Below, piece by piece: positions 5,210-20,121 of a stretch of DNA of 21,221 bases; within the stretch, counting starts at the first letter, position 1; every line of letters starts with the position of its first letter. The stretch lies in the NCBI GenBank assembly GCA_048938005.1, contig JBHLMQ010000028.1, positions 19,188-40,408 of the forward strand. The letters are read 5' to 3'. The notes under the pieces were generated by a model that saw nothing but the letters and a program-made list of their open reading frames with translations, ran no database searches and was not told the DNA's origin. The DNA comes from Promethearchaeota archaeon. Its GTDB lineage: Archaea > Asgardarchaeota > Lokiarchaeia > Sigyniarchaeales > SOKP01. A program made the translations under genes and the position numbers.

Positions 5210-6586
5210 TTATTTCAAATGTTTTTGAAGGTTTAAAATCTTTTTTTCTAGTTTTTTAATTCTAGATTCATTCCCATTTAAATCTTGAAAGTCTCTTAGA
5301 ACATTTAATGCTTGTTTATAATAATTAATGGCATTGATGTAATCTTTTCGTTTCTCGGCTTTTTCTCCTGCTTTTGAGGCATATTCTAGCTCCAGTTCCT
5401 TAATTTTCTTATCTAGTTCTAAAACCATAAATGAGATTCTACCAATATCTTCTTTTAAATCAAAACCAGTGGCTAAATAAAGAGCTTTCTCATACTCTTG
5501 TTGTGCTTCCTTATAAATTAAAGCTTTTTCAGCAGTTTCAGCTTTTTTAATAAATGAATTGATGGCCTTTCTAACTTCCTCTTCGTTCATAAATTTAGCT
5601 CTTGCTTTTAATTCATTTATTGCATCATCATTGGCTATAATTGTAGATATTAGTTCATTATTCGCAATTCTTATCGCTTGCGATTCTTGAAATTGTAAAA
5701 TGGTGGTTTCAGCAGTTTCAATCGTAGTTGGAAGGATTATATTTTTTTCTAAAAGTTGATAAATTTCATAGAGAAGAGTATTTGCATCAATATTAACAAT
5801 TTTTTGAACTTTATCGAGTAGATTAATGATAAAAAAAAAGGGTTTTGAAATTAAAAGTTCTTTAGCAAAATCAATTATGGCTTTTTGTATAGGATTCTTT
5901 TTGATTAATTCCAATGTATCTGGTAAAAATGTGTGGGTTAGAACCATGGGGAAGACTAATTTAACATTAAAAGTATCAACTATGAAATCTAGTGTATCAC
6001 CAAAATGCATCATTCCTTTTCTTAAATGTTCGCTAATTTTATCACGATATCTACTTTCATAGTCATTTAAAAAATCAGTAACAAGAGCTTTCAGACTATC
6101 GGAAGCTTTATGATCTAAGACTAAGCAGGTGTTAATAAATTCCCCACTTTTAAGTAAAATATTGAAATTTTCATAGTGAAATTCATAAAAGTGATGATTT
6201 TTTCCATTAGCTGCATTTCCATTTGATGCAGTACTCGATACTGAAAAGGATATATTTGCTTGAATGAATCCCGTTAATAATTGCGTATTGACCCCCGCCC
6301 CAGAAATTGGATAATCTATTATTGCTAACCCAGACTCTTTAGCCATTAATAAAATGTGTTTTATGTTCAAAACATCTAAAAATTTCTGCCATATTAAATC
6401 TTGGAACATTTGAATACGTTTCTCTTCAGAATCAATAATCGTGAATTTTAAATTTTGATTAAGGTTTAAACCAAATTTTTCAAGTTGAGCTTTAACACAC
6501 TCTTTACAGAAATCTGGATATTTTTCACAATTATTTTTATCTAATCCACAATCAAATCCCACTGGACTAATCTGAAAATATACCAT
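5210..6586 (-). CDS. Multidomain protein: Cys4 N-terminus, longin/roadblock-like domain, helical TPR/MIT-like C-terminus
   Basis: C13/C20/C27/C30. The segment IKHILLMAKESGLAI...LLTGFIQANISFS...EFHYENFNILLKSGEFINTCLVL has the longin-like strand/helix pattern. Two helical repeats: AEKALIYKEAQQEYEKA and AEKRKDYINAINYYKQA. Confidence 0.6.
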   Translation of the reverse strand: MVYFQISPVGFDCGLDKNNCEKYPDFCKECVKAQLEKFGLNLNQNLKFTIIDSEEKRIQMFQDLIWQKFLDVLNIKHILLMAKESGLAIIDYPISGAGVNTQLLTGFIQANISFSVSSTASNGNAANGKNHHFYEFHYENFNILLKSGEFINTCLVLDHKASDSLKALVTDFLNDYESRYRDKISEHLRKGMMHFGDTLDFIVDTFNVKLVFPMVLTHTFLPDTLELIKKNPIQKAIIDFAKELLISKPFFFIINLLDKVQKIVNIDANTLLYEIYQLLEKNIILPTTIETAETTILQFQESQAIRIANNELISTIIANDDAINELKARAKFMNEEEVRKAINSFIKKAETAEKALIYKEAQQEYEKALYLATGFDLKEDIGRISFMVLELDKKIKELELEYASKAGEKAEKRKDYINAINYYKQALNVLRDFQDLNGNESRIKKLEKKILNLQKHLK

Positions 6587-9521: not shown

Positions 9522-9543
9522 TTAACTCAATGAGTTAACTCAT
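9522..9543. promoter_or_regulatory. Nested inverted repeats over the start codon, candidate operator
   Basis: TTAACTCA-a-TGAGTTAA (9522-9538) overlaps the perfect 14-bp palindrome ATGAGTTAACTCAT (9530-9543). Confidence 0.5.
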
Positions 9544-10963
9544 GGATACTGAAGTAGAAGAGACTTTAACAATTGTCGCTGAGAGAGCACAGTTAGCTGA
9601 GGGTATCGAGGGGATTCGCTCAATTTTACTTACAATGTATCGTTTTCCTTCTCTTAAAAATAAAAAAGTAGCTCAAAAAACAGGAATTGCTATTCCAACT
9701 ATTGCTGCTGTTAGAAGCGAGTTAGTAAAGGCTGGTATTATTGAGAAAAGGAATTTTCTTGGTAAAAAAGGGAGAGAATGGGTAAGAATAAAGCTAAATT
9801 TAATTTTTGATTATGATCCTCTTCCAGGAGATTTTGATAGTACCATGAGGGAGTTACCAAAAGAATTTGACTATTTAAACAAGATTAAGGATTTTCTTAA
9901 TAATCGTCCAAAACCAGAATTTGCTCTTGATCAATCACATGCGGATTTTTCCACAGTTATAAGAAAGACCTTATATTTACTCAAAAAGGGAGATATTGAA
10001 GGAAGAAAGATTATTTTTTTAGGGGATGATGATCTTATATCGCTAGCAGTTGGTCTAACTAAATTAGCAAAAGAAATCACTGTATTGGATATAGACAATA
10101 GAATTTTGAATTTTCTCTCAAAATCCGCAGAGCAAATCTCTTTAAATAATTTTAAGGTTCTACTTCATGATTTGAGAGAACCATGTCCTAAAAATATCTT
10201 GAATAAATATGATGTTATTGTAATGGATCCTCCCTATACAAATCAAGGTTTAAGATTATTTCTGAAAAGAGCAAGCCAAGTGTTAAAATCAAATATCAAT
10301 ATTAACGGTAAAAACTATCCAATAATTGGGAAAAAATGTCTTCTCAGTTTTGGAAGTAAGCCTCCAGAAGAAATGCAGAAATTACAATTATCGATATTAG
10401 ATCATGGATTTATTATTAATGAAATGATCCCTGACTTCAATCATTACGAGGGTGCAAGTATAATAGGTAAATTTAGCCATCTTTACTATTTACAATCAGT
10501 AATAAATCCAAGTGATAAATATAACCTTAGCTTAAGTTCACTTCCAATATATACTTCTGAAGTAAAATCTCAAGTTTACCCGCAATTTCGTCCAATTGGT
10601 TTTCATTTTATAGGAGAAATGCGATTTACCTCACAAAATCTAGTTTTGGACAATAAAAGAATCCGTCAAATATTCCTAGATGCTCTTAATTCTGCTGGTT
10701 TAACAATATTAGATATATATAATCATAATTATATCCCCTATGGCTATACTATCATTGCTATTTTAGAAACAAGTCATGCTGCTCTCCATACTTGGCCAGA
10801 ACATGGCTATATCAGTATTGATATTTTTATTTGTGATGAGTTTGAAAAGGGCTTAAAAGCTTTAAGAAAGTTAAAAAGTAGTTTTAAACCTAAAGAATCA
10901 GAATTCTTCTATATAGAACGAGGTAAGGAGCCATTAATAGAATATAAAGCACTTGAATTATAA
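9542..10963 (+). CDS. bpsA: Fusion of a branched-chain polyamine synthase BpsA-like aminopropyltransferase and a C-terminal pyruvoyl S-adenosylmethionine decarboxylase (SpeD/SpeH-like)
   Basis: N-terminal wHTH-like region. BpsA motifs RPKPEFALDQ, FLGDDDLIS (G161-D164), LDIDNRIL, HDLREP, DPPYT and FNHY. From about aa 353, SpeD motifs GFHFIGE, PYGYT, TSH (Ser411), HTWPEHGY, IDIFIC and ERG. One uninterrupted ORF. Confidence 0.85.
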   Translation: MDTEVEETLTIVAERAQLAEGIEGIRSILLTMYRFPSLKNKKVAQKTGIAIPTIAAVRSELVKAGIIEKRNFLGKKGREWVRIKLNLIFDYDPLPGDFDSTMRELPKEFDYLNKIKDFLNNRPKPEFALDQSHADFSTVIRKTLYLLKKGDIEGRKIIFLGDDDLISLAVGLTKLAKEITVLDIDNRILNFLSKSAEQISLNNFKVLLHDLREPCPKNILNKYDVIVMDPPYTNQGLRLFLKRASQVLKSNININGKNYPIIGKKCLLSFGSKPPEEMQKLQLSILDHGFIINEMIPDFNHYEGASIIGKFSHLYYLQSVINPSDKYNLSLSSLPIYTSEVKSQVYPQFRPIGFHFIGEMRFTSQNLVLDNKRIRQIFLDALNSAGLTILDIYNHNYIPYGYTIIAILETSHAALHTWPEHGYISIDIFICDEFEKGLKALRKLKSSFKPKESEFFYIERGKEPLIEYKALEL

Positions 10964-11030
10964 GATTAAGTTTATAAATCGTAAGATCCAAATTATCATA
11001 AATTTAAATCTATTAAAAAAATTTTTAAAA

Positions 11031-11864
11031 ATGAAAGAATCAAACAACATAGGGCATTATGAGATTTCCGAATTTCCAAAAGTAAGAATCCCAACTTTGG
11101 ATTTCCTAGCACTAGGAGATAATAAGCATTATGTGAAAGGATTAATTGAATTTGATGTAACAGAGGGTAAAACTAAAATTCGGGAGCATGAGAAGAATAC
11201 AGGAGAAAAAATATCTTTCACAGCTTGGCTCCTTAAGTGTATAGGACAAGCCGCGAGTGAATATAAGGAAGTCCATTCTATGATGATGGGAAGGAAAAAA
11301 ATCATTAAATTTGATGATGTTGATATTTCCATTACAGTTGAGAAAACAGTTGATGAAATGAAGTCCCCAATGCCTTTAGTAGTCAGAAAAACGAATAAAA
11401 AGACTGTTAAGCAGATCAATGACGAAATAAGAAAAGCACAATCAGAACGAGTAAATGAAGCGACAGTCTTAGGAAATCATAACATTAAAAAAAAAGCGAA
11501 ATATTATCTTTCTCTGCCTAAATCTTTTAGAAGATTTTTAATAAAGAGGAGATTGAGAGATCCAATTAAAGTTAAACAACTCATGGGAACTATTATAGTT
11601 ACCTCTGTAGGCATGTTCGGTAAACTTCATGGATGGCCAATTCCGACTACTAATCATCCATTAGCTTTTGGTGTAGGAACCATTACAAAAAAACCAGGAG
11701 TAGTAGATGAAAAGATTGAAATTCGTGAATATCTGACAACAACTATATTATTTAACCATGATGTTGTTGATGGTGCTCCAGCAACCCGATTTGTGTCTCG
11801 ACTTGGTGAACTAATAGAAAGTGGATTTGGACTCCTAAATCTAGAATCATTTATATTTTTTTAA
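11031..11864 (+). CDS. Stand-alone 2-oxoacid dehydrogenase E2-type acyltransferase catalytic domain (no lipoyl domain)
   Basis: KISFTAW, DVDISI.VE, GTIIVTSVG and catalytic HDVVDGAPATRF (HxxxDG). Start reassigned to ATG at 11031. Confidence 0.85.
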   Translation: MKESNNIGHYEISEFPKVRIPTLDFLALGDNKHYVKGLIEFDVTEGKTKIREHEKNTGEKISFTAWLLKCIGQAASEYKEVHSMMMGRKKIIKFDDVDISITVEKTVDEMKSPMPLVVRKTNKKTVKQINDEIRKAQSERVNEATVLGNHNIKKKAKYYLSLPKSFRRFLIKRRLRDPIKVKQLMGTIIVTSVGMFGKLHGWPIPTTNHPLAFGVGTITKKPGVVDEKIEIREYLTTTILFNHDVVDGAPATRFVSRLGELIESGFGLLNLESFIFF

Positions 11865-11920: not shown

Positions 11921-12955
11921 TTAAATTGTATATCGCTGATTAATAAGTGTTTGAAATTGTATATTCGAATGTGGTTGATCCTGATAACCTCCTCGTTTTG
12001 AAACAAGATAGAACTGAACCAAACTATCATTGTGAACTAAAGTAATTCCTCGCCATTTGTTTTCACTAGAATTAAATTCTACTACATTTCCAAGAGCTAC
12101 CCCTTCTCTAGTGGAGTAATTTAAGTTTAAACTATGTAAAGTTTTTATAAGTTCATCATGGTATTCATTAACTTTACGTTGAGGTTTATCTTTAAACCTA
12201 AGCGCTTCAATGGAAAAAGCTTTGAGAATGTCATTACTCATAGCCTTCCATGCCTCCGGGTTTGCATAAATCTCAGTACCTATAAACTCTCCGTTAATAA
12301 ACACAGCAATTCCACACTGATCTTTAATATTCGTAAAATGTTTAACGAGATCTTTAGTTTGTTTTTCAGATTCTTTTGTCATTTCAAGATAACTTTGAGT
12401 GGGAGCAACGGCTAAGGCATAATTCATTTCTGCCCTATGAGATTGAATTTCATCCCAGACTGCTCCCTGACCTGCAGCTGAAATAGCCTCAAATGCAACA
12501 TTAGGGTGAAGTCTAGTATTTGAAGATTTAAATCCACGTCCTTTAGTGTAGGTCCATCTTGATTGTTCTACACATTTAGCTGGGATCTTATATTTATGTT
12601 TAACTGTTCCAGGATTATGTTTGACAATTTTTTCCTTTCCTCCTACTGGAAGTAATATTGGTTCCCAGATGGTTCGATCCTGCTTTCCACCGTGAACAGT
12701 CATTCCAAATGGAATTAATATCTGCTTATCACTTTTATTTATGACTTCTAATTGTCCCACTGTCTCAGTTTCGAGTATCTCTACTAACTCTAATTCTTCA
12801 GCTTCTTTAATGCTAATAAAATCAATAAATTTGTCATCTTGAATTATGATAGGAATAACAGCCATATTTTCGTAAACTTGAGGAGTACCTAATTTAAGAA
12901 AACTTAAGGGATTTTCAAACATAGATTTTACAATTTGGATACTTTCATTTTTCAT
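11921..12955 (-). CDS. ARPP-1/DUF6569-like domain protein
   Basis: Recalled family motifs: ENMAVIPI, VEILETETVGQLEVINKS, GGKQDRTI, CVEQSRW, QGAVWDEI and QCGIAVFING. Confidence 0.7.
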   Translation of the reverse strand: MKNESIQIVKSMFENPLSFLKLGTPQVYENMAVIPIIIQDDKFIDFISIKEAEELELVEILETETVGQLEVINKSDKQILIPFGMTVHGGKQDRTIWEPILLPVGGKEKIVKHNPGTVKHKYKIPAKCVEQSRWTYTKGRGFKSSNTRLHPNVAFEAISAAGQGAVWDEIQSHRAEMNYALAVAPTQSYLEMTKESEKQTKDLVKHFTNIKDQCGIAVFINGEFIGTEIYANPEAWKAMSNDILKAFSIEALRFKDKPQRKVNEYHDELIKTLHSLNLNYSTREGVALGNVVEFNSSENKWRGITLVHNDSLVQFYLVSKRGGYQDQPHSNIQFQTLINQRYTI

Positions 12956-12957
12956 AC

Positions 12958-13380
12958 TTATTCATCCTCCTTTTTATTATTTTTAATTTTTTCTTTTAAA
13001 CGTTCTTTATCTTCAACCTTTTCTTCATAAAGTGGACTTATAAATTGGTTTACAATATTTTTTCCATTTTTAGTAAGTTCTACCCCCTGAGCAACTTTTA
13101 ATTTACCACTTTTACTTATCCCATTAATTCTTGTTCCTTTACCTTTTGGTATTTCATTTTCTGTTAATTCTTCCCTATGTGTTTTAATTAATCCGCCTCT
13201 TTTTAACGCATTCAAATGATAATTAATGTTTTGTTTTTGAAGTCCAATGTTTTCAGCAATCTCAATTGGTCTCTGTGGATTATCTGAAAGTTGTTGTAAA
13301 ATATCAGCTCTTACGGGGCTTCTAAATACAAGTCCTACTTTTTCAAAAATTGGTTTTTTCTTTTCTTTTTTCTTTGTCAT
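12958..13380 (-). CDS. ArsR/SmtB-like winged helix-turn-helix regulator
   Basis: SPVRADILQQL...RPIEIAENIGLQKQNINYHLNALKRGGLI...LTKNGK. Ends 2 bp before the ARPP gene, with GGAGG at 12970-12966 as the SD for that gene. Confidence 0.82.
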   Translation of the reverse strand: MTKKKEKKKPIFEKVGLVFRSPVRADILQQLSDNPQRPIEIAENIGLQKQNINYHLNALKRGGLIKTHREELTENEIPKGKGTRINGISKSGKLKVAQGVELTKNGKNIVNQFISPLYEEKVEDKERLKEKIKNNKKEDE

Positions 13381-15527: not shown

Positions 15528-16763
15528 TTAATATATTTCTTGTAGTAGAGCAGCTTTTATTTCGATCATACCTACATTGAATTTATCTTTTAAAATGAGA
15601 TTCTTGTATTCGGAAACATCGCGTTTACTTACCAGTAATGAATGATATACCCCAGCATTCTGCAATGTATTAATAAGCATATATCCAACTATGGTTGAGT
15701 CTTTTAAATACATTTTTTTATAAATGTTATCTTTAAAAAATTTCAATTCTTCTCCTTCATATACTCCATCTGAAATAATTGGCGTCCCAAATATCTTAAT
15801 AAGGGTTTGTATAGCAGAACCTTCATATTTAGTTTTTCTTCCAACCATATTATAACCAGCAATAGTCCCTTGAGTTAATGCGTTTGACCAAAGCAAAATA
15901 GACTCTCGATTTCCAGTTGAGATATTAATAGATTCAGTAATATCTCCTGCAGCATATATGTTAGGAATATTTGTTTCAAGATATTCATTTATTATTATTC
16001 CTGAATTTGTTTTAATTCCGCTATCTCGTAAAAAATCTAAATTTGGCTTAATACCTGTGGCAATTATAACAAGATCCGCATCTAAAACAGTTCCGTCAGC
16101 AAGTTTAACACTATTTACTCTTTTTTTACCAATAATCTTGGAAATATTATTTTCTAAGAAAAGATTGATATCATTTTTTTCAAGAATCTTTTTTGTTATA
16201 TCCGACATTTCTTTATCAAGCATTCGAGGTAAGACTCTATCCAAGATTTCAACAATAGTCACATCTATATTTTTTTTTTTCAATCCCTCAGCAGCATCAA
16301 GACCTACAAACCCCCCACCAAGTACAACAGCTTTTTTAGGTTTTTGTGTATTAAGCCAATTGTAAATAGCATCAGTATCATTCAGGGTTTTGAATGTAAA
16401 AATACCCTCCTTGTCAATTCCCTTTATAGCTGGCATATCAACATGGCCGCCTCCTGCGATGAGAAGTTTATCATAATCAATCGATTCTGAATCTACTAAA
16501 ATCTTTTTACTTTCAGGTTGAATATTTTTTACTTCTTTGCCTAAAATTGGATTGATGTTCATTAGATTGAAAAAATCTTTACCTTTCCAGAAGATTTTAT
16601 CTCTTTCTTTCTCTTCCAAGATGTAATGACAGAGAAGACAAGCGGAATATGCTGGAACATCTTCTTTTGAAATCATTATGATTTCTGACTTTTGATCATA
16701 CTTTCTTATTGCTTCTGCTGCACTTATACCTGCTCCTCCAGTTCCAATTATTGCATATCTCAT
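15528..16763 (-). CDS. FAD-dependent NAD(H) oxidoreductase (pyridine nucleotide-disulfide family), CODH-associated
   Basis: IIGTGGAG (FAD), VLGGGFVG...VE (NADH-type), ATGIKPN and TNIPNIYAAGD. C42LLC45. SD GGGGTG at 16776-16771. Confidence 0.9.
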   Translation of the reverse strand: MRYAIIGTGGAGISAAEAIRKYDQKSEIIMISKEDVPAYSACLLCHYILEEKERDKIFWKGKDFFNLMNINPILGKEVKNIQPESKKILVDSESIDYDKLLIAGGGHVDMPAIKGIDKEGIFTFKTLNDTDAIYNWLNTQKPKKAVVLGGGFVGLDAAEGLKKKNIDVTIVEILDRVLPRMLDKEMSDITKKILEKNDINLFLENNISKIIGKKRVNSVKLADGTVLDADLVIIATGIKPNLDFLRDSGIKTNSGIIINEYLETNIPNIYAAGDITESINISTGNRESILLWSNALTQGTIAGYNMVGRKTKYEGSAIQTLIKIFGTPIISDGVYEGEELKFFKDNIYKKMYLKDSTIVGYMLINTLQNAGVYHSLLVSKRDVSEYKNLILKDKFNVGMIEIKAALLQEIY

Positions 16764-16792
16764 TCTTTTCCACCCCTTTCTTATATATAATA

Positions 16793-18694
16793 TTACATTG
16801 GAGTTGTAATTGGAGGTTGTGTCAATCCGAGTGCTTTTCTCTTCTCTTCAATATGGTTGATTATCAACTCAGCCTCTTTCTCAGGATCGGGTTCGACTGC
16901 AAAAGTAGCTCCAACAACATCACCTAGTCCTTGTGTAAGAAGCGATGTAACATTTTGACTTCCTAATACTGGAGGTATAGAGCCAAGAACAGTAAATATA
17001 CCAGAAGCAACAACATAGGCTCCAATACTAACTGCCTTTTCTGACATCCATTCTGGCGCAGCACCCGCAACTGGTAAATCACTAATATCTACATTTAAAG
17101 CTTTTGCAATAGCGGCAGCAACATTCATAATTCTGCTTATATCTACACAAGATCCCATATGTAATACGGGAGGAATACCAAGAGCTTTTGCAATTTCTTT
17201 TAATCCTTCACCCGCTTGATCTGCTGCTTCTGGAACCAATAATCCTGCTTTCCCACACGCTATAGCAGAACAACCTGTCTCAACGACCAAAATATCATTT
17301 TCAATTAGCTTTTTTGCAAGGGTCACATGATTATAATCATGTTTAATCTTTGGATTATTACAACCAACAAGAGCTGCTATTCCTCTTATTTTACCATCTT
17401 TTATGGCATCAATGAGAGGTTGAGCGGTCCCACCAAGAGCATTTATTATAGCTTCAGTAGAAAATCCAGCCATTAATTTAACAGGATTTTTAGGAATGCT
17501 CACTTTATTAGGATTTCTATTTTTATAATTCTCAATAGCCTCTCTAATTATATTTTTACCGATTTCATATGCACGTTCTGGTTCAAACTCCATATGCATA
17601 GCCCCTTGCATTTTTGCTTTAGGAGATGTTGTTATTAATTTAGTATGATAACAGCTCGCTATGGATGGCAATGAAGGCATAAGACACTGGTAATCAACAA
17701 CCATGGCTTCAATAGCACCAGTGATGAGGGCAAGTTCTTGTACTAAGAAATTACCAGCAACGGGAATTCCCTTTCTCATTAGTAGTTCATTAGATGTACA
17801 ACAAATTCCACCTATATTAATACCATTAGCTCCATTTTGTTTTGCTAAATCAATCATTTCCTGATCTCTAGATGCATCCACAACCATTTCAGATAAAACA
17901 GGATTATGTCCATGAACAATAATATTCACCATATCTTCCTTTAATACAGCTAAATTTACTGAAGTCTCTTTTGGCTCTGGTGTTCCAAATAATATATCAC
18001 TAAATTCTGTAGCTAACATGGATCCCCCCCAACCATCACTAAGCGACGCTCTAAGACCATGCAATAATATATTTACATAGTCAGCACCAACACCTATATG
18101 TGTACGATGCATGATTTCGACTATCTCTCTATCAATACTTCTTGGCCAAATACCAAGATTTTTCCATAAATCTTTTCTTTTATCTGGTGCTCTTTCTGCA
18201 AACTGAATGGTATTTTTAATCATCCCAAATTCTTCCATTGCTTTTTCAGCTAAGTCTTTAGCAATTTCTTCCTTTGGTCTAGTATCTGTGAAAATATCAT
18301 ATTCTTGAGCTATTCTTTTCAATTTTTCTTCATCAGTAATTTTATATCCTAGAGTTTTACCCTCAGCAGTTAAGTGAAGTACTTCAACAATATCTCTTCC
18401 ATGATCAGAATGAGCAGCAGCTCCAGCAGCAATCATTCTTGATAAATTTCTAGCTACAATAATATCTGAATCAGCACCACATACTCCTCGGGTTGGTTCA
18501 TCACCAAAAGGATTAATTCTACAAGGGCCCATTACACAATTTCTGCAACATATTCCTAGTAATCCATATCCACATTGCGGTTCTTGAGACTCTAATCTAT
18601 CCCAAGCTGTTTCAATATGTTCTTCAGCAGCTTTTTCTAGTATAGGTTGAGCAGTTCGATCTATTGTCCTTTCTAAAATATCTTTTTTTATCAT
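16793..18694 (-). CDS. cooS: Anaerobic Ni,Fe carbon monoxide dehydrogenase catalytic subunit (CooS type)
   Basis: D/B clusters CGYGLLGICCRNCVMGPC...C. AAAHSDH. C-cluster ligand motifs HGHNP, GICCT, VDYQC, GCNN, TGC and GSCVD. EWMSEKA. SD AGGTGA at 18706-18701. Confidence 0.97.
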   Translation of the reverse strand: MIKKDILERTIDRTAQPILEKAAEEHIETAWDRLESQEPQCGYGLLGICCRNCVMGPCRINPFGDEPTRGVCGADSDIIVARNLSRMIAAGAAAHSDHGRDIVEVLHLTAEGKTLGYKITDEEKLKRIAQEYDIFTDTRPKEEIAKDLAEKAMEEFGMIKNTIQFAERAPDKRKDLWKNLGIWPRSIDREIVEIMHRTHIGVGADYVNILLHGLRASLSDGWGGSMLATEFSDILFGTPEPKETSVNLAVLKEDMVNIIVHGHNPVLSEMVVDASRDQEMIDLAKQNGANGINIGGICCTSNELLMRKGIPVAGNFLVQELALITGAIEAMVVDYQCLMPSLPSIASCYHTKLITTSPKAKMQGAMHMEFEPERAYEIGKNIIREAIENYKNRNPNKVSIPKNPVKLMAGFSTEAIINALGGTAQPLIDAIKDGKIRGIAALVGCNNPKIKHDYNHVTLAKKLIENDILVVETGCSAIACGKAGLLVPEAADQAGEGLKEIAKALGIPPVLHMGSCVDISRIMNVAAAIAKALNVDISDLPVAGAAPEWMSEKAVSIGAYVVASGIFTVLGSIPPVLGSQNVTSLLTQGLGDVVGATFAVEPDPEKEAELIINHIEEKRKALGLTQPPITTPM

Positions 18695-19305
18695 TTTTTC
18701 TCACCTAGTTGTGTCATAGAGAGAGCCATATCACGCCATACTTTTAATAATTCAGGTATCCTTTCTTCAATTGGTACTGCCGCAGCAAATTGTGCTGCTG
18801 TTTTACCAATAGCTCTTCGTTCTTTTTTTATAATTTCATTAATATCTCCATAGGAAAGGGCTCCAGTCTTACAAGCTTCAACACATGCGGGAATCAAATC
18901 ATTTGTGATACGTTCATGACAATTATCACATTTGTTAGCAATTTCTCTCTCTATGGAAACACGCCATGAAGGATTAAACGATACGGCATTAAAAGGACAA
19001 GCAATTGCACACATACCACATTCAATACATTTTTCTTCATTTATCAGAATTATATCAAATTCTTGATCTTTGGTAATTGCTCCAGAAGGACAGACATTTA
19101 TACAAGGTGTTGGATCGCAATGCATGCATTTACCAGGATAAGTCATTACTCCAAAAGTAGGCATTACATGGATTTTTGAAGTAGGTAATGGTTTTTCAGA
19201 AATTGCAGAATAGAGGTTTTTTGTTTCCGAATGTTCCACAGCACAAGCAACTTCACAGTGCTTACAACCAATACAATTCTCAGGTTTGATATAGACATTT
19301 TTCAT
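18691..19305 (-). CDS. cooF: 4x[4Fe-4S] electron-transfer subunit (CooF/DmsB type)
   Basis: CIGCKHCEVAC, CMHCDPTPCINVCP, CIECGMCAIACP and KCDNC...PACVEAC. ATGA overlap with cooS. Confidence 0.92.
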   Translation of the reverse strand: MKNVYIKPENCIGCKHCEVACAVEHSETKNLYSAISEKPLPTSKIHVMPTFGVMTYPGKCMHCDPTPCINVCPSGAITKDQEFDIILINEEKCIECGMCAIACPFNAVSFNPSWRVSIEREIANKCDNCHERITNDLIPACVEACKTGALSYGDINEIIKKERRAIGKTAAQFAAAVPIEERIPELLKVWRDMALSMTQLGEKK

Positions 19306-19584: not shown

Positions 19585-20121
19585 TTATTTCTCTAAGGAT
19601 TTGTAAATATGTGATATTAATTTTAAAAAAAATTCATCTATACCTGTGCCTGATTTTGCACTGGTTTCAAAATATCCACACGCGGTTAAAAATTGTTTAA
19701 GGTTGTCAGATTCTTCTTTATTAATTACTCTATTCTCAGTATTAATCAAATCAAGCTTATTTCCGACAAGTATACTAGAGAAACGTTCAATCACTTTCTC
19801 TATTTCATCTTTCCAGTTTGTAAGATTTTCAAATGTTTTTTTATTTGTTAAATCAAATACATATACTATTCCTTTTGCACCTTTGTAAAATTCATGTCTA
19901 ACCCATTTAAAGTGTTCTTGTCCAGCTAAATCCCATATCTGTAATGTAATTAATTTCTTAACATTAGGAATTTTAATCCGTTTTACGTAGAAGTTAGAAC
20001 CTATAGTAGCAGCCACATTAGGGGTAAATCGCTTTTCTAAGTATTGATTAAGTAAGGTTGTTTTACCTACCCTATAATCACCAACAATACAAATTTTATA
20101 TAAAGGATATTTAAGCCCCAT
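19585..20121 (-). CDS. Rab-like small GTPase (Ras superfamily)
   Basis: G1 GDYRVGKT, G2 TIG, G3 WDLAGQ, G4 NKLD, G5 ETSAK. No C-terminal Cys tail. Confidence 0.95.
   Translation of the reverse strand: MGLKYPLYKICIVGDYRVGKTTLLNQYLEKRFTPNVAATIGSNFYVKRIKIPNVKKLITLQIWDLAGQEHFKWVRHEFYKGAKGIVYVFDLTNKKTFENLTNWKDEIEKVIERFSSILVGNKLDLINTENRVINKEESDNLKQFLTACGYFETSAKSGTGIDEFFLKLISHIYKSLEK

Follow-up and report, generated by a model that had tools for sequence, protein, structure and literature searches.

What would be made by a protein in which a BpsA-like aminopropyltransferase and an S-adenosylmethionine decarboxylase (AdoMetDC) are joined in one chain? The question is raised by a gene in a 21,221 nt stretch of DNA (called here the window, meaning that stretch at its full length) from a Promethearchaeota archaeon (GTDB Asgardarchaeota; Lokiarchaeia; Sigyniarchaeales; SOKP01; assembly GCA_048938005.1, contig JBHLMQ010000028.1, positions 19,188-40,408, forward strand). 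The gene occupies window positions 9542-10963 (plus strand, stop codon included) and encodes 473 amino acids. We consider it fairly probable that the product is a bifunctional enzyme which makes its own decarboxylated S-adenosylmethionine (dcSAM) and then aminopropylates an amine acceptor other than ready-made spermidine. This reading sets predicted self-cleavage, two predicted activities and predicted dimerisation beside an observed architecture, observed conserved motifs, an observed clade membership and an observed gene content.

Almost all cells need polyamines, and the eukaryotic route to spermidine uses SpeE together with a class 2 AdoMetDC. In the window's genome the sole AdoMetDC is joined to a BpsA-like transferase belonging to a clade without a characterised member. 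Its product would tell which polyamines are formed in these relatives of the eukaryotic host cell, and would show whether the names 'BpsA' and 'bis-aminopropyl spermidine synthase', attached to hundreds of proteins of mesophiles, are wrong.

Domain structure of the fusion protein

The ORF list and the translation show one unbroken open reading frame (ORF) with an ATG start and without stop or frameshift, also around positions 10500-10600, where the first-pass annotation had allowed for an interruption. The motifs which that annotation had named were all found in place: in the N-terminal part DQ (residue 130), GDDD (161-164; window 10022-10033), DID (183), DLR (210) and DPPYT (229-233; window 10226-10240), and in the C-terminal part GFH (353), ETSH (409, which puts the putative cleavage site at T410/S411), HTWPE (416), DIFIC (427) and ERG (459). 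Both domains that it had proposed were recognised by Pfam. The first, BpsA_C (PF01861), matched residues 111-329 with 164.4 bits (E 3.6e-48; positions 2-210 of the 243-position profile) and corresponds to a BpsA-like Rossmann-fold aminopropyltransferase domain at 9872-10528. The second, AdoMet_dc (PF02675), matched residues 355-461 over the complete profile (E 7e-27, 94.3 bits, positions 1-107 of 107) and corresponds to a class 1b AdoMetDC proenzyme domain at 10604-10924, for which the NCBIfam equivalog TIGR03330 (adenosylmethionine decarboxylase) scored 89.6 bits against a cut-off of 75.65. Preceding these is a helical winged-helix-like domain common to the BpsA family (approximately residues 1-100; 9542-9841), in which HTH_24 weakly matched residues 26-68 (E 5.3e-5) and helices were modelled at residues 3-85. 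The two enzyme domains are connected by a flexible linker (residues 326-349; 10517-10588), which contains the motif IYT (336-338; 10547-10555).

A sequence search of the PDB returned BpsA of Thermococcus kodakarensis (Tk-BpsA, 5xnc; E 6.7e-30, 107.5 bits, with an alignment beginning at residue 51, in the N-terminal domain), Pyrococcus furiosus 2qm3 and BpsA of Thermus thermophilus, and, for the other half, AdoMetDC of Thermotoga maritima (1vr7/1tlu, E 3e-17 to 6e-17) and of Aquifex aeolicus. The same two families were found with the structure model. In an AlphaFold2 monomer model based on 46 sequences both domains were confident (mean pLDDT 85, pTM 0.68), and the 24-residue linker was modelled as disordered (pLDDT <50). 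The channelling of dcSAM that the first-pass annotation had thought possible gains no support from this model. Foldseek ranked BpsA structures first (5xnf, 5xnc, 2qm3 and 6j27, E 3e-19 to 1e-15; 5xnf E 3.1e-19) and AdoMetDCs next (2iii, 1vr7 and 1tlu, with root-mean-square deviations (rmsd) of 1.4-1.7 Å over about 110 residues).

Homologues at E<=1e-3 numbered 386. The 120 listed among them are 464-482 aa long, cover 97-100% of the query, are collinear with it and carry both Pfam families in one chain; in public genomes both domains were found in one ORF at 35 of 79 loci. The domain junction is genuine, not a product of faulty assembly, and the fusion recurs. In the databases the homologues are named 'adenosylmethionine decarboxylase' or 'N(4)-bis(aminopropyl)spermidine synthase'.

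The decarboxylase half

In the alignment with the class 1b AdoMetDC (SpeD/SpeH) of T. maritima, TM0655, residues S411, H416 and C431 fall on Ser63, His68 and Cys83 (1tlu residue = query residue minus 348). We take H416 and C431 (in HTWPE and DIFIC; window 10784-10834) to be the active-site histidine and cysteine and S411 to be the processing serine, in line with the roles reportedly assigned by Toms et al. (2004). The predicted self-cleavage site T410/S411, where S411 would become the pyruvoyl group, lies at 10769-10774. Among 46 aligned fusion proteins S411, H412 and C431 were invariant (46/46), and H416 was present in at least 90%. The T. maritima enzyme and the window domain also have the full-length PF02675 match in common, and superpose with an rmsd of 1.7 Å over 110 residues. 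They differ in that the former is a free-standing protein of about 125 aa with a glutamate before the serine, the latter a C-terminal module of a 473-aa protein with a threonine there.

Scored with TIGR03330, a fusion protein of the Hodarchaeales-type Asgard family (f22) reached 90.4 bits and one of Xenorhabdus 121, whereas an orphan SpeD-like protein of the Asgard family f12 stayed below the cut-off with 59.8. In a quick tree of 58 SpeD rows, 14 Asgard fused domains formed one group (support 90), nested in a 30-row group (86) together with SpeDs whose genes neighbour speE or canonical bpsA; the f12 orphans were placed elsewhere on a very long branch, and supports in this tree are modest. Judged by these alignments and profiles, the C-terminal domain would be a class 1b AdoMetDC that cleaves itself and decarboxylates S-adenosylmethionine (SAM).

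The transferase half

For the transferase, BpsA-family genes were collected from three sources: 201 genomes of the phylum, 79 public loci (fusion alignment) and 80 public loci (canonical BpsA-like alignment). From the 189 family ORFs collected and the window protein, 78 rows were chosen for a quick IQ-TREE search with SH-aLRT support. The Tk and T. thermophilus BpsA sequences were absent from this tree, two scans of public genomes having yielded no Thermococcus or Thermus locus, and the canonical clade was anchored by PDB sequence matches only. A branch with a support of 98 split the tree into a canonical BpsA clade of 25 rows (Archaeoglobi, Hydrothermarchaeota, Thermodesulfobacteriaceae, Njord-type Asgard archaea and others) and a sister clade of 53 rows, which includes the window protein. 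A canonical member (locus L131) matched Tk-BpsA 5xnc end to end (E 1.1e-104, 353 bits), including the C-terminal '...LYDDEESSTT'. The match of a sister-clade member (L021; E 6.4e-37, 130.7 bits) reached only to about residue 300, and that of the window protein is weak and likewise extends only to about residue 300. Three columns of a 64-row alignment separated the clades: column 232 is Y in 39/39 sister rows (DPPYT) and in 0/25 canonical rows, where it is E, D or H (DPPET); column 304 is G, in place of N, in 39/39 sister rows versus 0/25 canonical; and column 338 is T in 39/39 sister rows ([ILM]YT) versus 1/25 canonical. The sister clade is large and modular, its members having zinc ribbon, GNAT, LPG_synthase_C, carrier-protein and SpeD partners.

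According to a review of branched-chain polyamines (PMC12979288), D159 and D160 of the BpsA motif GDDD hold the aminopropyl group of dcSAM, residues D225, E259, Y290 and Y316 activate spermidine, and the acidic C-terminal residues E339, D342, D343, E344 and E345 serve as aminopropyl carriers in a ping-pong mechanism. The window protein shares with BpsA (EC 2.5.1.128; Tk structures 5xnc, 5xnf and 5xnh, T. thermophilus 6j27) the PF01861 domain, the two-domain fold, GDDD (equivalent to Tk G157-D160), D229 (Tk D225), Y302 (Tk Y290) and, after the last strand, a lid-like [ILM]Y element that aligns with Tk L340-Y341. In the aligned fusions GDDD, D229, Y302, Y337 and T338 were invariant (46/46), and I336 was present in at least 90%. 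Presumably, then, the dcSAM donor of BpsA is also used by the window transferase.

The acceptor side is different. As seen in the sequence alignment, with no superposed structure, the column of Tk E259 holds S272 in the window protein and S, H, N, A or V elsewhere in the sister clade, and a segment of about 30 residues, which in canonical enzymes carries the 'NWY' of Tk Y316, is missing throughout that clade. The region after [ILM]Y differs as well. Canonical tails are 4-21 residues long with at least two acidic residues in 21/25 rows, while in the window protein IYT is followed by SEVKSQVYPQF, in which E340 is the sole acidic residue, and then by the SpeD domain. In the Asgard fusions the SpeD domain starts about 15 residues after IYT, in the place of the acidic tail or of the zinc ribbon (CxxC...CPxC, about 55 residues) that follows [ILM]YT in 17/24 unfused and 3/3 GNAT-fused sister-clade members; a short basic tail is present in the other 7/24 unfused members. 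Zinc-ribbon examples are L021:900-2063, L059:630-1781, L184:348-1523 and L070:2995-4500.

The GDDD motif offers a way of telling whether dcSAM is used. It was present in 177 of the 189 BpsA-family ORFs collected, and the deviating Asgard proteins belong to families for which the phylum scan gave no AdoMet_dc match: family f5 has GDSD in 4/4 long paralogues and GDMD in two short ones (AdoMet_dc 0/21 genomes, SpeE 0/21), f18 has GDGD (AdoMet_dc 0/1) and f25 GDFD (AdoMet_dc 0/2). Such proteins probably use another donor or do another job. The loss of the dcSAM-anchoring middle aspartate where there is no source of dcSAM suggests that dcSAM is indeed the donor of the GDDD proteins and is supplied to them by the fused domain; it is the best sign obtained in silico. 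Non-GDDD Asgard genes were recorded at L025:646-1806, L027:839-1987, L034:310-1473, L035:459-1622, L032:427-1629, L026:824-1702, L028:935-1783 and L036:601-1461.

As far as the alignments tell, the transferase half has the same donor-binding apparatus as BpsA and yet misses three features that define BpsA; we have not filed the window protein as a BpsA. The first-pass annotation had done so, and had expected N4-branched polyamines. A true BpsA, making N4-aminopropylspermidine and N4-bis(aminopropyl)spermidine from spermidine with its own dcSAM, would account for the two characterised BpsAs being the best PDB matches, and for the retained GDDD, D229, Y302 and [ILM]Y element. It fits poorly with the position in the sister clade, with a Tk-BpsA score of 107.5 bits as against 353 for a canonical member, with S272 in place of E259 and with the missing Y316 segment (two of the four acceptor residues), and with an acidic carrier cluster reduced to E340 at most. 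Taken together with the lack of a spermidine source in the host (see below), this makes N4-branching of spermidine by the window protein quite unlikely.

Polyamine genes of the host genome

The genome (3.72 Mb in 101 contigs, 95% complete) contains one PF02675 match and one PF01861 match, and both are the fusion gene. SpeE (PF01564) was not found in it, the lone match of about 24-25 bits being a generic Methyltransf_31 protein. Neither was carboxynorspermidine decarboxylase (nspC; best score in the genome 43.6 bits versus a cut-off of 409), and for CASDH the genome gave no credible match. With neither SpeE, nor a second AdoMetDC, nor a carboxyspermidine route, classical branching of spermidine is unlikely in this organism: no route to the substrate of BpsA was seen in the genome except the fusion enzyme itself. 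Reverse gyrase was not found over the cut-off (best 85.8 bits in the genome versus 471.7), so there is no sign of hyperthermophily, a further point at which the host differs from what a BpsA would lead one to expect.

Genes for arginine-derived amines are present. A pyruvoyl arginine decarboxylase (PdaD) is encoded divergently from one deoxyhypusine synthase (DHS) paralogue, and a second DHS gene directly follows that of agmatinase, in a cluster of an ArgRS fragment, agmatinase and DHS (G000:C48:37811-39646 and G000:C24:20773-22559; L004-L007). Bacterial DHS homologues (SpeY) were recently shown to join two molecules of agmatine, and homospermidine is then formed by an agmatinase homologue (PMC13625781). 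One of the DHS paralogues may be such an agmatine-dependent, homospermidine-type synthase. The NCBIfam model '1,9-bis(guanidino)-5-aza-nonane synthase' did not identify either as SpeY (208 and 211 bits versus a cut-off of 500), and scores also stayed under the cut-offs of the DHS equivalogs.

Proposed reaction

We propose that the class 1b AdoMetDC proenzyme domain would cut itself between T410 and S411, turning S411 into a pyruvoyl group. By calculation this would yield a chain of 410 aa (46.9 kDa), comprising the transferase and the first decarboxylase half, and a pyruvoyl chain of 63 aa (7.4 kDa), and the two would remain together. The matured decarboxylase domain would turn SAM into dcSAM, which the N-terminal aminopropyltransferase, with the sister-clade marks DPPYT, G304 and [ILM]YT, would bind through GDDD and from which it would hand the aminopropyl group to an amine. 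The acceptor is likely to be an arginine-derived amine supplied by way of PdaD, agmatinase and the two DHS paralogues, with agmatine, putrescine and a homospermidine-type amine as candidates, and the product would be an accessory polyamine. Since the fusion is the sole AdoMetDC and the sole candidate aminopropyltransferase of a genome without SpeE, it is not expected to branch ready-made spermidine as BpsA does. The catalytic residues of both halves are kept in spite of an identity of only 32-36% between the two Asgard groups of fusions, an observation in favour of a functional two-enzyme protein.

The enzyme is probably dimeric, to judge from the models. A homodimer model gave a median ipSAE of 0.63 in three runs, as compared with 0.00 for the best of three controls, with a contact agreement of at least 73% between runs and a partner pLDDT of at least 80. 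Among proteins of solved structure, 20 of 30 same-chain pairs and 1 of 23 single chains attained the ipSAE mark, counts that apply only roughly since an alignment of our own was used for the window protein. The modelled interface involves transferase residues 262-321, with the helix region 272-298, and the SpeD sheet, including S411, H412, H416 and C431; that it runs through the sheet is a further likeness to T. maritima AdoMetDC. The result may simply mirror this kinship, because oligomers have been solved for both BpsA and AdoMetDC.

Arguments against the proposed reaction and alternative functions

Several observations weigh against the reaction proposed above. The first concerns the decarboxylase. 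The residue before the processing serine is T410 in the window protein, whereas T. maritima has E62 before S63; T or S occupies this position in the fusions of f1 (the family of the window's genome) and E in those of f22. Other AdoMetDCs tolerate other residues before the processing serine, and therefore we put little weight on the missing glutamate. Furthermore, the branches of the fused SpeD domains are long (1.23 and 1.79 changes per column), and some SpeD homologues have turned into decarboxylases of arginine or ornithine, as reported in PMC10407285. That source presents such changes as widespread in bacteria and archaea and includes SpeD-SpeDC fusions. If the C-terminal domain were a neofunctionalised SpeD of this kind it would supply the acceptor (agmatine or putrescine) and not the donor, and the long branches and the non-canonical threonine would be understandable. 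A GDDD-keeping transferase would in that case be left without a source of dcSAM in the genome, the domain being its only PF02675 match and covalently joined to a candidate aminopropyltransferase; PdaD is already there to decarboxylate arginine; and the domain passes the TIGR03330 cut-off and groups with SpeDs linked to speE or bpsA. We regard neofunctionalisation of this domain as very unlikely.

A second group of objections concerns the acceptor. The acceptor pocket is unlike that of BpsA: K273 is invariant among the aligned fusions, next to the position at which the acidic E259 of BpsA is replaced, and because of this lysine and the altered pocket the acceptor may not be a polycation. In addition, the fusion gene of f22 lies in a tight same-strand row of inositol-1-phosphate synthase, UbiA prenyltransferase, fusion and a CTP_transf_1 protein, in 4/4 Pfam-checked loci (L008:3606-7756, L009:3605-7773, L010:5331-9502, L052:832-5065), an arrangement suggestive of lipid chemistry rather than of free polyamines. 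An acceptor other than a free polyamine, such as a lipid head group, a carrier-bound intermediate or an anionic small molecule, would also agree with the partners of related transferases (GNAT in four, LPG_synthase_C in two and PP-binding in two of the 35 relatives checked) and with the position of a Xenorhabdus fusion beside the end of a nonribosomal peptide synthetase (NRPS) gene. All f22 loci are from one genus, however, so the synteny may be simply inherited. The window has no such neighbours, the E2-like acyltransferase gene downstream of its fusion (see below) being linked to the fusion only within genus g1, and the known dcSAM-dependent transferases of the BpsA fold all act on polyamines (established knowledge; review PMC12979288). 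Transfer to something other than a free polyamine is in our estimate unlikely.

The third objection is the patchy occurrence of the fusion within its own family, where it was found in 14/61 genomes, as compared with DHS in 61/61 (1-3 DHS matches per genome in most). This distribution indicates that the fusion is not the family's general source of the hypusine precursor and points to an accessory role; the idea that it might be the essential spermidine source of f1 for hypusine is weakened by the same figures. Finally, both the transferase and the SpeD trees come from quick searches, with SH-aLRT as the only measure of support and with rows of our own choosing.

With these points in mind we still favour a bifunctional enzyme that charges an arginine-derived amine. 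A bolder variant can be formulated: the f1 (Promethearchaeota/Lokiarchaeia-type) and f22 Asgard lineages, devoid of SpeE in the genomes searched, would use the fusion with its remodelled pocket on an unusual acceptor. This might be an amine of the homospermidine type that the extra DHS paralogue provides, or else a head group that is anionic or linked to a lipid, and the result would be an undescribed class of aminopropylated metabolites. Should this be true, the SpeE-type spermidine synthesis of eukaryotes would not have descended from these Asgard lineages. We give this variant a modest chance and think it somewhat unlikely.

Distribution and origin of the fusion

The Asgard censuses are samples of 201 genomes of the phylum and 61 of family f1, and absence means that none was found in those. 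Both domains occurred in one frame of 459-502 aa in 23/201 genomes, and in one more (G175) at a contig end. By family, the phylum scan placed fusions in 14 genomes of f1, including that of the window, and in 10/10 sampled genomes of f22. Within f1 they were found in genus g1 (9/11, including the window's genome), g4 (4/11) and g60 (1/1); in the sampled genomes of g2, g3, g5, g6 and g7 neither the fusion nor any AdoMet_dc match was found. SpeE was detected at E<=1e-12 in 28/201 genomes of the phylum, but in 0/10 of f22 and in 2/40 of f1, both of the latter being atypical matches. In families f6, f8, f9, f15, f17, f19, f20 and f23 the genes speD, speE and those of the bpsA family are separate and often lie in clusters.

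The fusions of f1 and f22 are collinear through the linker despite their low mutual identity (see above), and the Asgard sequences come together in a single clade of the transferase tree (15 rows, support 99) as well as in one group of the SpeD tree, which suggests, as far as these trees can be trusted, a single fusion event in Asgard archaea. The architecture is not peculiar to them. Of 35 public one-ORF fusions, 15 were of the window type (one truncated) and 7 of the f22 type; the rest came from 10 Xenorhabdus species (501-512 aa), a Clostridia metagenome-assembled genome (MAG; 513 aa), a gammaproteobacterial MAG and a WWE3 bacterium (weak). The search for domain architecture and taxonomic range that the first-pass annotation had proposed thereby returned BpsA_C-AdoMet_dc proteins from Asgard archaea, Xenorhabdus, Clostridia and Patescibacteria. 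The Xenorhabdus and Clostridia fusions keep the zinc ribbon before SpeD and stand apart from the Asgard fusions in both trees, which argues for a separate fusion event; the architecture has arisen separately in Xenorhabdus, the Clostridia MAG and Patescibacteria. The 10 Xenorhabdus species, represented by named strains, may open the way to direct tests. In Xenorhabdus sp. PB62.4 (L070:82-6977) the fusion lies beside the end of the NRPS gene (Condensation and PP-binding domains), an SDR gene and a fatty-acid desaturase gene; nine further Xenorhabdus fusion loci are L074-L080, L082 and L094.

A wider search, covering 1.84 billion representatives, returned 5618 matches at E<=1e-3, of which 128 reached E<=1e-30. 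Among the 35 representatives checked with Pfam the order BpsA_C-AdoMet_dc was found in 16 and AdoMet_dc-BpsA_C in two, besides the GNAT, LPG_synthase_C and N-terminal PP-binding proteins counted above. The nearest ESM Atlas cluster has 298 members, mostly WWE3, with PF01861 in 100% and PF02675 in 99%. Transferase relatives with GNAT, LPG_synthase_C (an aminoacyl-tRNA-dependent transferase domain), PP-binding or reverse-order AdoMet_dc are P0135, P0150, P0181, P0236, P0219, P0245, P0180, P0185, P0167 and P0203.

As to the source of the fusion, numerous lineages have speD next to a BpsA-like gene. An origin by simple read-through of such a pair was rejected, since most pairs run speD then bpsA, the wrong order. 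The suitable order was seen only in Bathyarchaeia and a few bacteria, and a pair of this kind was rejected too, as the SpeDs concerned are placed apart from the fused domains in the tree. In nine Bathyarchaeia loci a BpsA-like gene, of 544-563 aa in at least 7/9, is followed by speD, often with overlap; in L067 Pfam found a C-terminal GNAT. These Bathyarchaeia pairs (BpsA_C-GNAT and overlapping speD) and a speD-bpsA-like pair of the Asgard family f27 contain the nearest unfused relatives of the window transferase in the tree. They have DPPYT, G304 and [ILM]YT in common with it, and the Bathyarchaeia pair also the gene order. They differ in the zinc ribbon after [ILM]YT and, in Bathyarchaeia, the GNAT domain, both lacking in the Asgard fusion, and in SpeDs that fall outside the group of the fused ones.

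Comparison with described enzymes

Of described proteins, the AdoMetDC-aminopropyltransferase fusions of Ca. Pelagibacter come closest in plan, in that they too unite an AdoMetDC of class 1b with an aminopropyltransferase in a single polypeptide, and both halves were functional in Escherichia coli speD and speE deletion strains (PMC11107197). In that source their AdoMetDC is N-terminal and their transferase of the SpeE type, so that the claim of the first-pass annotation, a SpeD placed C-terminally to a non-SpeE transferase in reversal of the known order, holds with respect to these fusions; they are the only ones described in the part of the paper accessible to us. In the window protein PF01564 (Spermine_synth) gave E 0.094 and 12.7 bits, below the cut-off of 22.9. 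From BpsA the window protein is set apart, in addition to the differences in DPPYT, G304 and the acceptor residues, by an AdoMetDC fused at the position of the tail and by a host that has neither a thermophile marker nor SpeE.

The annotation had also known of no description of such a fusion, and we found no paper describing a BpsA-AdoMetDC fusion in the literature searched, although there could be a mention in supplements or in the roughly 1.7 million PMC articles outside the search. None of the words 'fusion', 'fused' and 'Asgard' occurs in the 2026 review PMC12979288; BpsA is not mentioned in the accessible parts of the paper on SpeD neofunctionalisation (PMC10407285) and of one on eukaryotic spermine synthase; and literature searches for DUF43 with polyamine, for Xenorhabdus with AdoMetDC or aminopropyl, and for Asgard spermidine synthase with DHS returned nothing relevant.

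Neighbouring genes in the window

Upstream of the fusion gene lies a gene for a divergent acetyl-CoA hydrolase/transferase. Downstream, an ORF at 10953-11864 (plus strand) encodes a lone E2-like 2-oxoacid_dh acyltransferase catalytic domain, without a lipoyl domain. As its relatives start about 69 nt past the fusion stop, its start is probably the ATG at 11031, and the 11-nt overlap with the fusion is then likely an artefact of ORF calling. The acyltransferase was rejected as a dedicated partner of the fusion: in f1 it occurs in 19/61 genomes and the fusion in 14/61, and it follows the fusion only within g1. Genomes G171, G065, G121 and others have the acyltransferase but not the fusion; the opposite holds for G071, G083 and G104.

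Further downstream, at 11921-13380 (minus strand), a gene for an ARPP-1 domain protein (344 aa) is paired with one for an ArsR/HTH_20 regulator (140 aa); homologues of the two have adjacent coordinates in four related loci (L014, L015, L040 and L049). The genes at 15528-19305 (minus strand) encode a 4Fe-4S dicluster protein, a member of the Prismane/CO dehydrogenase family (633 aa, E 2.5e-193) and a pyridine nucleotide-disulphide oxidoreductase. Two genes bear the eukaryote-like signatures typical of Asgard archaea: one at 19585-20121 (minus strand) for a Ras-family small GTPase (E 1.7e-45), and one at 5210-6586 (minus strand) for a 458-aa protein with a C-terminal MIT domain.

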